64,000 nt of DNA from Shigella phage Sfk20. Position numbers and translations under genes: made by a program. Numbering within the stretch: the first letter of the stretch is position 1; each line of letters starts with the position of its first letter. The stretch is taken from the sequence record MW341595; one strand, 5' to 3'. The notes below the pieces were generated by a model. The model was given only the letters and a program-made list of their open reading frames with translations. It made no database searches and was not told the origin of the DNA. Below are positions 1 through 3,517 of the stretch, one piece after another.

Positions 1-384
1 GCTATAGAAATTTTTACTTACACGAGCAAAAATATAACGACTTGCCGCTGCTTTTTGAACGGTACGAGAACCAAAGTTTCCTTGACCATCTAACAAAGGA
101 AAGTTATTATTCCAAGTATTAGCCATCAAAGCACCTGCGTCTTGTGCAGAGTTTTCACCATGATGATATCCAAGGTCTGCTACACCACCTGCAATAGAAG
201 CGAGTTTGTGAAACTTATCTTTATTTCCTCGTGCCAAATCAAGGGCTCGAGCAATAACAAATCGTTGAACTGGCTTAAATCCATCAATCATATTTGGGAT
301 AGCACGATTTTCAACCGTGTACATAGCATAAGCCAATGCTTCATTATCAATGATACTTTTTAAATCACGATTATTCAGTTGCAT
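1..384 (-). CDS. 52: DNA topoisomerase II medium subunit gp52, N-terminal part (gene continues past window start)
   Basis: Reverse translation from ATG at 382-384 gives MQLNNRDLKSIIDNEALAYAMYTVENRAIPNMIDGFKPVQRF..., matching remembered T4 gp52 N-terminus (GyrA-like). Confidence 0.9.
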   Translation of the reverse strand, partial: MQLNNRDLKSIIDNEALAYAMYTVENRAIPNMIDGFKPVQRFVIARALDLARGNKDKFHKLASIAGGVADLGYHHGENSAQDAGALMANTWNNNFPLLDGQGNFGSRTVQKAAASRYIFARVSKNFYS

Positions 385-388
385 AAAT

Positions 389-529
389 TTACCATACTAG
401 TGAATGTAGTGCCATAATAACATCAGAAATGAAAAGCACGACTTGAATTAATCCGAACATTACTCCATAATATAGTGCTACCAATAAAGTAGCAAGGGCT
501 AATGAATAGCCCAAGATTTTCTTAATCAT
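389..529 (-). CDS. small hydrophobic protein, 46 aa (MIKKILGYSLALATLLVALYYGVMFGLIQVV...)
   Basis: Hand-translated ORF ATG 527-529 to TAA 389-391; hydrophobic; overlaps stop of next ORF; below ORF-track size cutoff. Confidence 0.35.
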   Translation of the reverse strand: MIKKILGYSLALATLLVALYYGVMFGLIQVVLFISDVIMALHSLVW

Positions 530-680
530 TAGTAGATAACAACACAAATGTTAAATATGCACACATACCCTGGGCTAAAGCTTGTGAAAACACACTGCTA
601 GCATCGATACAGATAGTTAAAACACATGCTACTATCCAACAAATAAATGAAATAACTCCTAATAATTTTGCGATATTCAT
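522..680 (-). CDS. ac-family small membrane protein, 52 aa
   Basis: ORF-track ORF 522..710 begins at TTG; internal ATG at 678-680 preceded by GAGGAG gives MNIAKLLGVISFICWIVACV...; paralogous to 691..846. Confidence 0.5.
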   Translation of the reverse strand: MNIAKLLGVISFICWIVACVLTICIDASSVFSQALAQGMCAYLTFVLLSTND

Positions 681-690
681 AATATTCTCC

Positions 691-846
691 TCAACTATTT
701 TTAGAACCAATGTACGCGAATAATGATAAAATCGCTAATACGCCCTGAGCTGATGCCTGCAAAAATACTGAAGTTTCTCCAGTTATTACTGTTCCGACGC
801 ATAAAAAGAACCAGCAGAAAAAGGCTATACCGTGAACAAATTTCAT
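691..846 (-). CDS. ac-family small membrane protein, 51 aa (size matches T4 ac)
   Basis: Hand-translated MKFVHGIAFFCWFFLCVGTVITGETSVFLQASAQGVLAILSLFAYIGSKNS; ATG 844-846, stop 691-693; shares SVF-QA-AQG core with 522..680. Confidence 0.45.
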   Translation of the reverse strand: MKFVHGIAFFCWFFLCVGTVITGETSVFLQASAQGVLAILSLFAYIGSKNS

Positions 847-853
847 ATTTTCC

Positions 854-934
854 TCACTGGCGTCCGAAGACGCCTTTGGTTTTAAGATTGTTACGATAGA
901 ACTGCATCACATGTTCGTTATGGAAATTACTCAT
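854..934 (-). CDS. stp: Stp peptide, 26 aa (host anticodon-nuclease/restriction interplay)
   Basis: Hand-translated [26 protein letters not shown], matching the remembered T4 Stp; start overlaps ndd stop (TAATG). Confidence 0.8.
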
Positions 935-1389
935 TAATATGCCTGCAAAACAAATTTAAAGTTATCAGCCAACATACGGTTCATTTCTTCAAGCGTTTGA
1001 TACTCAGAATGATGATTACGAGTAAACGCTAAAGCTAACTGACCTTTTCCAAATCCCGTCGTCAGAGGTTTCATCTTAGAAGCAGGTAGATAAAATACCG
1101 TGTATGGAACATTGTTATTTACAATAGTACGCGCAAGCTGAGACCGACGTTGACGAATATGACTTAAAACTGCACTAAACCCTTGCTTAGAACGCTGATT
1201 ACCTACATAAAATCGTGCAGATACGCATGGACTACTAAATGGACCACCGAGTTTACTCACTAAAAAGTAAAATCCAGGTTTAGATAAAATATCTTTGTGC
1301 GGAGTTCCCAAAAACCATTCACCGCCCTTGATTGTACCAATAACAGTTGCGCCTGCATTATTCAAATCAGTAACAGTCATGTATTTCAT
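934..1389 (-). CDS. ndd: Ndd nucleoid disruption protein
   Basis: 151 aa, same length and map position (next to stp, before denB) as T4 Ndd; AGAGGA SD before ATG. Confidence 0.75.
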
Positions 1390-1420
1390 ATTAATTTCCT
1401 CTAATTATTTTCTACTCCAA

Positions 1421-1442
1421 GGCCGCATGAATACACACGGCC
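1421..1442 (-). terminator. GC stem-loop (ggccg...cggcc) between ndd.1-like ORF and ndd
   Basis: Inverted repeat ggccgcatgaatacacacggcc read from sequence. Confidence 0.35.
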
Positions 1443-1448
1443 GATAAA

Positions 1449-1664
1449 TTAATCGTCGCAGTCGACGCTCAATTCCCAGAACTCTTCTACAGTATAAGTT
1501 TCAGTATCATTTTCAATACAGAAACGTTCATTACTGTTGTTTGCTAAAGTAGCATTAACTGTCATTTTCTCGCTAGTGCTCTTAAGAGGTGAAATACGAA
1601 TTAACTGATCACCGCTATCCAAACAAAAAATTTCGCCAACTTTTACATCTTTAAAAATTTTCAT
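1449..1664 (-). CDS. hypothetical protein (ndd.1 position), 71 aa
   Basis: ORF track; ATG 1662-1664 with GAGGTGA SD. Confidence 0.5.
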   Translation of the reverse strand: MKIFKDVKVGEIFCLDSGDQLIRISPLKSTSEKMTVNATLANNSNERFCIENDTETYTVEEFWELSVDCDD

Positions 1665-1672
1665 AATTCACC

Positions 1673-1783
1673 TCAGGGAGTATAAAATCCAAATGCAGTT
1701 GTTGACCATCCCATCCAATACGGAAAATTTGCACCAACGTAAAACATGAGAATATAAAACCAACCACTCAGCAAATTTATCAT
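1673..1783 (-). CDS. small hydrophobic peptide, 36 aa
   Basis: Hand-translated MINLLSGWFYILMFYVGANFPYWMGWSTTAFGFYTP; ATGA start/stop overlap with upstream ORF. Confidence 0.3.
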   Translation of the reverse strand: MINLLSGWFYILMFYVGANFPYWMGWSTTAFGFYTP

Positions 1784-1977
1784 TTTACACCATTCCAAAT
1801 TGTTTCAACCACAGATTTTAAGCCATTTTGATGAATGTCCATTCCGACAACCGTCATCAAATAAATTCCAACTACAACTGAACCTAAGGCGAAAATCAGC
1901 ATGAAAATGAATAAAGCTGGAAAAATATTATCGAAAAACCATTCAATAAATGTAAAAGCACTGCGTTTACGCTTCAT
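1780..1977 (-). CDS. small membrane protein, 65 aa
   Basis: ORF track 1780..1998 trimmed to ATG 1975-1977 (MKRKRSAFTFIEWFF...) with GAGGAAA SD; hydrophobic core. Confidence 0.45.
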   Translation of the reverse strand: MKRKRSAFTFIEWFFDNIFPALFIFMLIFALGSVVVGIYLMTVVGMDIHQNGLKSVVETIWNGVK

Positions 1978-1984
1978 ATTTTCC

Positions 1985-2098
1985 TCACATAAATCCAAAG
2001 CAAGCGTTTAATACATCAATCATTAAAACGATTGGGAATATACTCAAAACTACTAATATTATAACTACATTCCATATAGCTTTAACAATCTTTTTCAT
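1985..2098 (-). CDS. small membrane peptide, 37 aa
   Basis: ATG 2096-2098 preceded by GGAGG; MKKIVKAIWNVVIILVVLSIFPIVLMIDVLNACFGFM. Confidence 0.4.
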   Translation of the reverse strand: MKKIVKAIWNVVIILVVLSIFPIVLMIDVLNACFGFM

Positions 2099-2126
2099 TT
2101 TGTGTTCCTCCGTAGTTGATAGGGTA

Positions 2127-2155
2127 ATAATACCACAGAGGAACAGTCTTGTAAA
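2127..2155 (-). promoter_or_regulatory. early (sigma70-type) promoter
   Basis: Reverse complement reads TTTACA-17 nt-TATTAT. Confidence 0.55.
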
Positions 2156-2163
2156 CAACTTTT

Positions 2164-2262
2164 TTAAAAATATTCGTAATAAATGTGAATACCAACTACT
2201 ACTGCTGAAACTTGCGCAACCCACCACGCACAAGCAATAAGCACAGAATTCAAAATTTTCAT
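2164..2262 (-). CDS. small hydrophobic peptide, 32 aa
   Basis: Hand-translated MKILNSVLIACAWWVAQVSAVVVGIHIYYEYF; GAGGT SD. Confidence 0.3.
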   Translation of the reverse strand: MKILNSVLIACAWWVAQVSAVVVGIHIYYEYF

Positions 2263-2373
2263 AATAACCTCATCACAAAAGTAAATGTTAAACAAATTAA
2301 TGGAATACTAATTAACCAAATAAAACACCACCACAATGAACTCATAGTTCAATCTCAACGATTTTCATTTTAC

Positions 2374-2580
2374 TCAATAATCTGCTAAAAGATCGACGAT
2401 TGCATCACGAAGACACTTATTCGCAATACGTTTAAGAGCAATTTCAGTTTCTGGAGCATTTTGAATAATCATTGAATTCAATTCAGCCTCAGCAAACTGA
2501 AGTTCTTTAACTAATTCAGCTTTATATTTTCCTTGCCCTTTCTTAGCTTTTGCTCGTTTTAATTCAGCTGTAGTAAACAT
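2374..2580 (-). CDS. hypothetical protein, 68 aa
   Basis: ORF track 2374..2592 trimmed to ATG 2578-2580 (MFTTAELKRAKAKK...) preceded by GGAGaataaa leader. Confidence 0.55.
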   Translation of the reverse strand: MFTTAELKRAKAKKGQGKYKAELVKELQFAEAELNSMIIQNAPETEIALKRIANKCLRDAIVDLLADY

Positions 2581-2614
2581 TTTATTCTCCAAATCCGTAT
2601 CAGTTGATAGTTGT

Positions 2615-2643
2615 ATAGTACCACAGTCCTTGTGGTATGTAAA
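2615..2643 (-). promoter_or_regulatory. early (sigma70-type) promoter with conserved leader
   Basis: Reverse complement TTTACA-17 nt-TACTAT; followed by repeated leader cassette. Confidence 0.55.
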
Positions 2644-2662
2644 CTGTTTTGTGAAAAATTTT

Positions 2663-3220
2663 TTAAATGGAAAGATACCATCCGTTGTAGTTGCTTTTTC
2701 TTACAACCTTACGAAGGTCTTCTCTATCACCGATGAACTTCGGAGTGTACTGGATGACACCTGGATGAATTTCTTTAGTGTTGAATATAATTATACAGTC
2801 AGCGACCTGATGATTCAGAATGGGCCCTAGATTTATTCCAGAACCGTATGGATACTCTCCGCTGCATCCGGTTGTTACCGAAATCCAACGTGAGTCAGTT
2901 TGATGTGTCTTAACTTCTACACGAAGCCCGCAGTATCTTGGATGCGCCAATACATCCCATGCGTATGTATACGGGTCATTAACATCCTCTTGGCCTTTGT
3001 TAACATACCCGCTTAGCCAATCTGCTACAAAAAACTCTGCGTACACCGCGATACGACATCTTTCGATAACTTCTGCTTTATCCTGGTTCGGGTTTTGTTT
3101 TAAAGAGTATCTTGCTGTATCAGCAATTTTGACCTTCATTTCACTAGTCAAGTCACTGTTCGATAGGGTAAATGTCGGAATCTGAAATAGTCTCTGTAAA
3201 CCCGGATTCGTTTTCTGCAT
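2663..3220 (-). CDS. denB: endonuclease IV
   Basis: 185 aa, same length and map position (between ndd region and rIIB) as T4 DenB. Confidence 0.8.
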   Translation of the reverse strand: MQKTNPGLQRLFQIPTFTLSNSDLTSEMKVKIADTARYSLKQNPNQDKAEVIERCRIAVYAEFFVADWLSGYVNKGQEDVNDPYTYAWDVLAHPRYCGLRVEVKTHQTDSRWISVTTGCSGEYPYGSGINLGPILNHQVADCIIIFNTKEIHPGVIQYTPKFIGDREDLRKVVRKSNYNGWYLSI

Positions 3221-3482
3221 TTAGACTTTCCTTTTTACCGCTGAGATAAGCGTTATATACTTTAAGAGTGCCGTAATAAATTCGGTCATTTTCGTCTAAA
3301 GACTCATGGTCGAGTTCATCAAGTTCCTTTTTATCCATGACTATAACATCATTACAGTAAAGAAACCCAAGTTTTTCGTGACCAAACTCAAATTTATTGC
3401 AGTACACAATATTAGCGTGATGGTTTCCGTGCAGTTTAATCTCTTTTATGTCGGAATCACTGATATTCATACAGTAAATCAT
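3153..3482 (-). CDS. hypothetical protein, 109 aa
   Basis: ORF track; overlaps denB start by about 68 nt in another frame. Confidence 0.45.
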   Translation of the reverse strand: MIYCMNISDSDIKEIKLHGNHHANIVYCNKFEFGHEKLGFLYCNDVIVMDKKELDELDHESLDENDRIYYGTLKVYNAYLSGKKESLNAENESGFTETISDSDIYPIEQ

Positions 3483-3500
3483 AATTTTTCCTTAAAACAA

Positions 3501-3517
3501 AAGGGCCGAAGCCCCTT
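3501..3517 (-). terminator. GC stem-loop (aagggccgaagcccctt) with A/T-rich flanks
   Basis: Inverted repeat read from sequence, just downstream of ORF 3521..3715. Confidence 0.5.

Follow-up and report, generated by a model that had tools for sequence, protein, structure and literature searches.

The segment between gene 52 and denB of Shigella phage Sfk20 is crowded with very short open reading frames (ORFs), which raises the questions of whether these are genuine genes and how many of them belong to the family of the T4 gene ac. This segment lies at the beginning of the 64,000-nucleotide (nt) stretch of record MW341595 (the window), and an earlier note on it had described arrays of tiny hydrophobic ORFs around stp and ndd, including three ac-like paralogues. 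The ORFs listed there, among them 389–529, 522–680, and 691–846 between gene 52 and stp, are all present on the minus strand, each beginning with ATG and ending in a proper stop, and the identification of 52, stp, ndd, and denB was correct, their T4 orthologues matching. Bases 1–3500 of the window gave matches in 725 phage records, 485 of which cover at least 80% of the region; the best match was Escherichia phage Ec_MI-02 (97.7% identity, full length), and RB14 was found at 96%. Very probably, the segment is the “D region,” a nonessential early part of a T4-like (Tequatrovirus) genome, and comparison of the small-gene products with annotated T4 and RB14 genes gave a one-to-one correspondence. 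We concluded that the tiny hydrophobic ORFs are real, conserved, and previously named genes and that the ac-family genes among them are two, not three.

The ORFs at 522–680 and 691–846 share the core SVFxQAxAQG, as the note had pointed out, and BLASTP aligned their products with 45% identity over 40 amino acids (aa) at E = 4e-10, while global alignment gave 19 identical residues out of 51. Both matched the phrog_2501 profile (E = 3.7e-25, residues 1–51, for the first; E = 4.9e-26, residues 1–50 of the 50-position profile, for the second). One of them is ac itself, as had been presumed: it encodes T4 Ac (UniProt P18924, phrog_2501) with one additional Thr near the C-terminus (51/52 identical), lies at the same position, and has the same 8-nt overlap onto 52.1. 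Ac with the extra Thr is a common variant, which is reported to be phenotypically neutral in phage PP01 (bioRxiv 10.1101/2025.06.30.662393). The other ORF, called ac2 here, is a paralogue. It resembles T4 Ac in PHROG family, length, the layout of two hydrophobic segments, the core, and a Gly equivalent to G38, but it differs in being only 37–45% identical, in its GSKNS end with a stop codon of its own, and in not overlapping 52.1; T4 itself lacks a second ac copy. Its nearest counterpart is the ac gene of RB32 and RB51 (RB32ORF258c, remarked by its annotators to be “more similar to RB69”), which belongs to the same subtype (72–76% identity) and likewise stands right after stp with the same Shine-Dalgarno (SD) sequence. 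In RB32 and RB51, however, this is the sole ac gene and overlaps 52.1, whereas in the window ac2 is located upstream of the T4-type ac.

The third supposed paralogue, 52.1, did not hold. It gave no BLASTP alignment to ac or ac2 at E ≤ 100 and belongs to a separate family (phrog_3595, E = 1e-25, and DUF7396). Except for the ac/ac2 pair, no all-against-all BLASTP hit among the small ORFs went below E = 0.098. When 19 distinct Ac-family sequences were aligned, an invariant to near-invariant core, W...T...(E/A)(T/S)SV(F/I)xQAxAQG...A, became apparent between two variable hydrophobic segments; the Gly of its AQG is G38 in T4 Ac and is retained as G35 in ac2 according to the pairwise alignment. Only five clusters, all of 48–52 aa and either T4-type or ac2-type, came out of an exhaustive profile search through 1.84 billion representatives, so that, as far as visible, the Ac family appears to be small and confined to T4-like phages. 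The phrog_9347 peptides, onto which an Ac-seeded iterated hidden Markov model drifted, were rejected as members, being unrelated by sequence reading and PHROG scans.

Two side observations concern ac in other phages. In T6 (L052:4678–4924), Ac diverges after G38 into MWCIFNICVVI and the 8-nt overlap with 52.1 is lost; judged from the translations, the C-terminus is apparently frameshifted. The Stp of T6 also has another, longer C-terminus (…KNFGILGFKNS, 28 aa). Phage T6 was historically reported as more proflavine-sensitive. It was rejected as a carrier of the tandem pair, as it has a single T4-type ac only. In Klebsiella phage KP179 (L009:1641–1781), an unannotated 52.1 homologue, MIKKILIGAALVAALLLILYYGMIYGVVYIVLFISDVIVQIGSLIW, follows ac with the same ATGATTAA overlap; therefore, the coupling of ac and 52.1 is conserved across genera.

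The distribution of the two types was followed by tblastn. T4-type Ac was found in 462 phage records, in 412 of them at ≥95% and in 459 at ≥80% identity, while the ac2 type occurred in 173 records, from 98% down to 45% identity, including Klebsiella phages. The T4-type gene stands alone in T4, RB14, and T6, and the ac2-type gene stands alone, directly after stp and overlapping 52.1, in RB32, RB51, wV7, ECO78, and Yersinia phage P8. The DNA of stp with the SD that follows it, and that of 52.1, is nearly identical in T4, RB14, RB32, RB51, and the window, and the cassette between them is of either type or both. A 181-nt query across the ac2/ac junction was covered to ≥80% in 50 records. The junction TCTAAAAATAGTTGAGGAGAATATTATGAATAT is the same base for base in five tandem genomes (the window, vB_SsoM_113, Ec_MI-02, ESh29, and T4_ev151), therefore a single origin of the tandem pair is favored. 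Several GenBank records already carry a double “acridine resistance” annotation, and ac2 is so named in ESh29 and T4_ev151.

To place the pair in context, the ORFs between ndd and 52 were classified in 50 loci, which displayed 19 arrangements. Five elements make up this slot: stp, a phrog_5941 peptide (51–53 aa), the Ac family, the unrelated phrog_9347 peptide (51–55 aa), and a near-constant 52.1. In these loci, as in the annotations of T4, RB14, RB32, and RB51, the Ac-family genes lie between ndd/stp and 52.1–52. Three loci retain scars, that is, two cassettes around a truncated 52.1 in the order Ac2, 52.1′, phrog_9347, 52.1 or phrog_9347, 52.1′, Ac2, 52.1: L017 (3178–3324; identical to phage IME281), L019 (3346–3492), and L051 (Gaprivervirus DCP80). 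L017 was the only scar locus read base by base: here the microhomology GAGTAAT marks the joint between a frameshifted 52.1 fragment and a truncated stp, which is 91–93% identical to Tequatrovirus stp, unlike the resident stp. The cassette and 52.1-fragment proteins of L019 are the same as those of L017, and L051 has a 22-aa 52.1 fragment between its cassettes. The fusion in L017 is direct evidence that whole stp–cassette–52.1 modules were stacked by illegitimate recombination between different phages. Thus, the ndd–52.1 interval in T4-like phages is a recombination-shuffled slot of small membrane-peptide cassettes.

The note had called the ac-like ORFs tandem duplicates. They are indeed a paralogous pair, but a recent duplication does not agree with the 72–76% identity of ac2 to the single ac of RB32/RB51 and the 51/52 identity of ac to that of T4. 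Judged by these identities, the pair looks like two old alleles that were stacked, or an old duplication that was lost differentially. On the first reading, the tandem would have arisen once in Tequatrovirus, when the RB32/RB51-type and T4-type alleles were stacked between stp and 52.1; we favor this, since divergence between the cassettes greatly exceeds that of the flanks. The second reading assumes that an SD + ORF unit was duplicated in situ in an ancestral Tequatrovirus and then diverged, one copy or the other having disappeared from most lineages, the tandem state being ancestral. We consider this rather unlikely, but it is the strongest competitor, and stacking cannot be strictly separated from it, which counts against the preferred interpretation. 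The spacers of ac2/ac (AGTTGAGGAGAATATTATGAA) and stp/ac (AGTGAGGAAAATATGAA) are similar, as if the SD had been part of the duplicated unit; this likeness fits an old tandem duplication and also stacking with a cleaner joint. Moreover, the T4 type is found in none of the diverged loci from IMG/VR and nearly all of its records are at ≥80% identity, so it could be a derived copy. Opposed to duplication are the 37–45% identity of cassettes embedded in nearly identical stp and 52.1 DNA, the occurrence of the ac2 type as sole slot occupant in other genera (Jiaodavirus KP179, Gaprivervirus DCP80), and the clear cases of cassette stacking elsewhere with 52.1 and stp scars, including the Tequatrovirus-type stp piece in an IME281-like genome.

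It is improbable that, once in tandem, ac2 became a redundant and decaying passenger without a function of its own, even if a single ac gene suffices in most relatives and none of the region is needed under laboratory conditions. Full-length ac2 (residues 1–51, no stop) was found in all 16 of the listed records at ≥96% identity (47 records fall into the 95–99% band), and the gene has a strong SD of its own. Between the window and ECO78, the proportion of synonymous differences (pS) is 0.40 and that of nonsynonymous ones (pN) 0.076, with pN/pS of about 0.2–0.6 within the type, and the core TGETSVFLQ(A/S)(S/T)AQG is kept among distinct alleles, where two positions vary, while the helices are variable. 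The excess of synonymous over nonsynonymous differences and the conserved core argue that the ac2 copy is maintained.

Stacking of cassettes recalls the shuffling mediated by promoter early stem-loop (PeSL) elements in hyperplastic regions of T4-like genomes (Arbiol 2010; Comeau 2014, PMC4122927), of which the exchange of ndd.4/ndd.5 is a published example. The region examined here is likewise rich in indels and has early promoters of the TTTACW-N17-TAYWAT type; these precede ndd.4 and the 68-aa ORF next to denB, and the former matches the form found in the PeSL elements of T4/PST (PMC4122927). A consensus scan assigned an extended TG to both promoters (2155–2127 and 2643–2615). No promoter–stem-loop element, however, flanks the ac cassettes, whose joints lie in coding or SD sequence (the 5′-end of 52.1, stp, SD) and show short microhomology. 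A more far-reaching idea, which we regard as speculative and doubtful, is that the slot holds combinatorial two-helix peptides (Ac1, Ac2, phrog_9347, and phrog_5941), joined by microhomology between co-infecting phages upstream of 52.1, each of which would disable a different inner-membrane target of the host, for example, resistance-nodulation-division (RND) efflux pumps or membrane-embedded defence; a phage with the tandem pair would then have a broader range of host-envelope takeover than T4.

That the tiny ORFs are genes follows from several lines of evidence: matches to PHROG families, tiling, kept frames, pN/pS values, early transcripts in T4, and early-type promoters. In 389–2345, ATG-initiated ORFs of 26 aa or more take up 92% of the coding strand but 15% of the opposite strand, compared with a mean of 26% (standard deviation 11%, maximum 61%) in 500 shuffled sequences, thus the tiling is far above chance. 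Every small ORF matches a PHROG family with E values from 4e-17 to 2e-37, and three also exceed Pfam cut-offs: stp with PF08133 (75.3 bits against 25), 52.1 with DUF7396 (81.9 against 27, residues 1–46), and ndd.2a with DUF7248 (71 against 27, residues 6–63). The T4 genes 52.1 and ndd.1 to ndd.6 (Miller et al. 2003; DUF7396, DUF7248) are one-to-one orthologues in the same order, and the products are 89–100% identical.

Conservation was also examined in 36 IMG/VR loci anchored on Ndd, with 45–97% Ndd identity. Intact frames were found for 52.1 and ndd.4 in 31 loci each, for ndd.6 in 20, ndd.2a in 18, ndd.2 and ndd.1 in 14 each, stp in 13, and ndd.5 in five, all of the latter being close relatives. 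Frames and lengths are kept even in relatives with 45–66% Ndd identity, so the conservation of frames in T4-like phages, whose lack would have contradicted the note, is well documented. The mean pN/pS over distinct alleles ranges from 0.10 to 0.61 for the small ORFs and is similar for ndd (0.43) and denB (0.44), which indicates purifying selection; the values are uncorrected proportions with pS partly saturated. In a T4 time course, the transcripts of 52.1, ac, stp, and ndd.2 to ndd.6 all belong to the early class, and Ndd and Ndd.1 were detected as early proteins (PMC9697503, Table S2).

Some points weigh against this conclusion, besides the limits of the pN/pS values. The 52.1, Ac, Stp, and Ndd.2 to Ndd.6 proteins are listed as “NA” (undetected) in the same time-course proteome (PMC9697503, Table S2), and the literature searched contained no direct evidence for translation of the hydrophobic peptides. 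Papers on ribosome profiling of small T4 proteins were sought without relevant result, and hits to ndd.x gene names were mostly papers on neurodevelopmental disorders. Non-detection in the proteome is expected for tiny hydrophobic proteins, yet it leaves a gap. The notion that these are untranslated chance frames in AT-rich early intergenic DNA, to which their shortness, their absence from the T4 proteome, and the weak SD of ndd.2 and ndd.6 might point, is effectively refuted by conservation, as frames and lengths persist at 45–66% Ndd identity, pN/pS is below 1 in every ORF, each has its own PHROG family, one-strand coverage greatly exceeds that of shuffled sequence, and genetic proof has been published for ac and stp.

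The genes are tightly packed. Stops and starts of neighboring genes overlap at several places: the ndd stop and the stp start have one common base (TAATG, 932–936), as had been noted, and the start of 52.1 overlaps the end of ac by 8 nt (ATGATTAA). Of the ATGA stop/start overlaps, which had been called frequent, two were found, at ndd.2a/ndd.2 (1780–1783) and ndd.6/ndd.5 (2259–2262). All three kinds of overlap would allow translational coupling. Each ORF between ndd and denB had been credited with its own SD; in the region as a whole, a clear one precedes ac, ac2, ndd, ndd.1, ndd.2a, ndd.4, and ndd.5, but those of stp, ndd.2, and ndd.6 are weak, and none was seen for 52.1, which is coupled to ac by the overlap. 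The description of the ndd–denB ORFs as small and mostly single-helix membrane peptides agrees with hydropathy: the best 19-residue Kyte–Doolittle window scores 2.1–3.05 for 52.1, ac, ac2, ndd.2a, ndd.4, ndd.5, and ndd.6, that of ndd.2 is borderline (1.29), and ndd.1 and the 68-aa ORF are soluble.

The function of ac has been studied in T4, where ac mutants and deletions are acridine-resistant, Δac withstands acriflavine, plasmid-borne ac makes E. coli about 1000-fold (about 3 logs) more sensitive to acriflavine, and G38R abolishes the effect, T4 G38R being acridine-resistant (bioRxiv 10.1101/2025.06.30.662393). The authors proposed that Ac inserts in the inner membrane and obstructs AcrAB-TolC (bioRxiv 10.1101/2025.06.30.662393; repeated in PMC13250531). 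The region is very probably transcribed leftward from early promoters immediately after infection and encodes a battery of very small proteins, most of them predicted one- or two-helix inner-membrane peptides (52.1, Ac, Ac2, Ndd.2, Ndd.2a, Ndd.4, Ndd.5, and Ndd.6), alongside Stp, Ndd, and the soluble Ndd.1. Ac1 is the T4 protein that causes acridine accumulation in infected cells. By the positive-inside rule (K2/H5 and K49 of Ac2), Ac and Ac2 would be helical hairpins of N-in/C-in orientation, with the conserved polar core located at the turn on the periplasmic side. Ac2 keeps the whole core, including the Gly equivalent to G38, and so probably shares the action of Ac, although its target may be a different pump or host variant. 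Two facts speak against taking this too far: obstruction of AcrAB-TolC is a preprint proposal in which the interaction was not demonstrated, and acridine sensitization was shown for T4 Ac only. Synthesis of 52.1 may be tied to that of the last cassette, as the conserved 8-nt overlap suggests, and the two may be partners; our best guess for 52.1 and Ndd.2 to Ndd.6 is early remodelling of the host inner membrane.

E. coli AcrZ (49 aa), which binds AcrB, offers a functional analogy only, as a small inner-membrane peptide akin to the one proposed to act on AcrAB-TolC. AcrZ is a single helix and modulates the pump, whereas for Ac, with its two hydrophobic segments, a block of the pump is proposed. 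Stp is described in database annotations as an activator of the host PrrC lysyl-tRNA (anticodon) nuclease. In T4, Stp is also an anti-restriction peptide. Compared with T4 Stp (PF08133, anticodon nuclease activator), the 26-aa sequence and the TAATG junction with ndd are the same, and no difference was detected. T4 with the deletion saΔ9, which spans 52.1 through denB, is viable; its yield is roughly halved, and it no longer stimulates phosphatidylglycerol synthesis as T4 does (PMC6071114).

Two T4 annotations are affected by the comparison. In the T4 reference (L006:3933–4129), DNA alignment with RB14 and RB32 showed a G to be missing directly behind the ATGAA that opens the 65-aa ndd.2a ORF. 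This ORF is intact in the window, RB14, RB32, and T6; in T4, the conserved DUF7248 gene has therefore been broken, by a frameshift or an error in sequencing, into “ndd.3” (26 aa, in another frame) and a 40-aa “ndd.2a.” For ndd.4, the T4 annotation adds MEEQK, five residues, at the N-terminus (42 aa), but in the window the GGAGG SD precedes the MKK start and there is no upstream ATG, so the conserved ndd.4 product is the 37-aa form.

For discovery, these results are of little consequence, since this is textbook T4 gene content: every ORF is already a named T4 gene (annotation of the 1990s to 2003), the double ac is already annotated in GenBank, and a second ac is a mildly unusual yet known polymorphism of about 50 sequenced relatives. 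Their use lies in tidying three small points on which annotators err: 52.1 is not an ac paralogue, T4 “ndd.3”/“ndd.2a” represent a frameshifted form of a conserved 65-aa gene, and Ac has two deep subtypes, found singly or in combination. Should Ac indeed block AcrAB-TolC, natural phages with a divergent pair of Ac proteins would lend themselves to a search for the binding targets.

The features of the region are collected in Table 1. All genes here are on the minus strand, in the order denB, 68-aa ORF, ndd.6, ndd.5, ndd.4, ndd.2a, ndd.2, ndd.1, ndd, stp, ac2, ac, 52.1, 52, taken from the annotations of RB14, vB_SsoM_113, Ec_MI-02, ESh29, and T4.

Table 1. Genes, early-type promoters, and a hairpin between gene 52 and denB (positions in the window)
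Feature	Position	Strand	Length (aa)	Remarks
Gene 52, 5′ part (DNA topoisomerase II medium subunit)	1–385	−		Start codon 385–383; annotated in RB14, vB_SsoM_113, Ec_MI-02, T4
52.1	389–529	−	46	Hydrophobic; 45/46 identical to T4 gp52.1
ac (T4-type, “Ac1”)	522–680	−	52	Two hydrophobic segments
ac2 (RB32/RB51 type)	691–846	−	51	Divergent Ac-family paralogue; own SD GAGGAAAAT
stp	854–934	−	26	26/26 identical to T4 Stp; phrog_6763; PF08133
C(UUCG)G tetraloop hairpin in mRNA	859–874	−		Within last stp codons, just upstream of ac2 SD
ndd, nucleoid disruption protein	934–1389	−	151	148/151 identical to T4 Ndd
ndd.1	1449–1664	−	71	Soluble, acidic; grand average of hydropathy (GRAVY) −0.38; 68/71 identical to T4 Ndd.1; phrog_2183
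ndd.2	1673–1783	−	36	Aromatic-rich; 33/36 identical to T4 Ndd.2; phrog_4135
ndd.2a	1780–1977	−	65	Single-helix membrane protein, intact; phrog_2401; DUF7248
ndd.4	1985–2098	−	37	Single-helix; strong SD GGAGG; 33/37 identical to T4 Ndd.4; phrog_3098
T4-early-type promoter upstream of ndd.4	2127–2155	−		TTTACA-17-TATTAT with TG; 10/12 matches in consensus scan
ndd.5	2164–2262	−	32	Single-helix; 32/32 identical to T4 Ndd.5; phrog_5011
ndd.6	2259–2345	−	28	Single-helix; 26/28 identical to T4 Ndd.6; phrog_8851
RB32ORF266c homologue	2374–2580	−	68	Soluble; pN/pS 0.30; annotated in RB14, vB_SsoM_113
Early-type promoter upstream of 68-aa ORF	2643–2615	−		TTTACA-17-TACTAT, extended TG
denB (endonuclease IV), boundary of region	2663–3220	−		182/185 identical to T4 DenB

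The hairpin at the end of stp has a folding free energy of −12.2 kcal/mol (z = −3.98), and none of 200 shuffled sequences folded as well. Its stem and loop, GGCGTCTTCGGACGC, are the same in the window, T4, RB14, RB32, and RB51, except that RB51 differs at the stem-closing base. A second C(UUCG)G tetraloop hairpin was observed at 3500–3517 (minus strand), followed by a U-run and located upstream of the 109-aa ORF described below; the two are probably mRNA-stabilizing or terminator elements. Another hairpin, with 9 bp and rich in GC (GGCCGUGUG...CAUGCGGCC, 1413–1434, minus strand), occupies part of the 59 nt that separate ndd.1 from ndd and has no U-run; its free energy is −16 with flanks and z = −2.5. 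A scan of the whole window with Rfam found no family at gathering score.

Two soluble ORFs on the minus strand, 2374–2580 (68 aa) and 3153–3482 (109 aa, RB32ORF268c-like), are without T4 counterpart and are annotated in RB14, RB32, and T6; the former, just beyond the range of the note, is the extra ORF that separates ndd.6 from denB in the window compared with the ndd region of T4. The 109-aa ORF and the long (185-aa) version of denB have 68 nt in common, and some records begin denB later (477 nt), so that its true start is uncertain here. Misleading product names have spread among the matched GenBank relatives: Ndd appears as “naphthalene 1,2-dioxygenase,” Ac as “sugar ABC transporter permease,” 52.1 as “recombination endonuclease subunit,” and the Ndd.x peptides as “outer membrane” or “periplasmic protein.”

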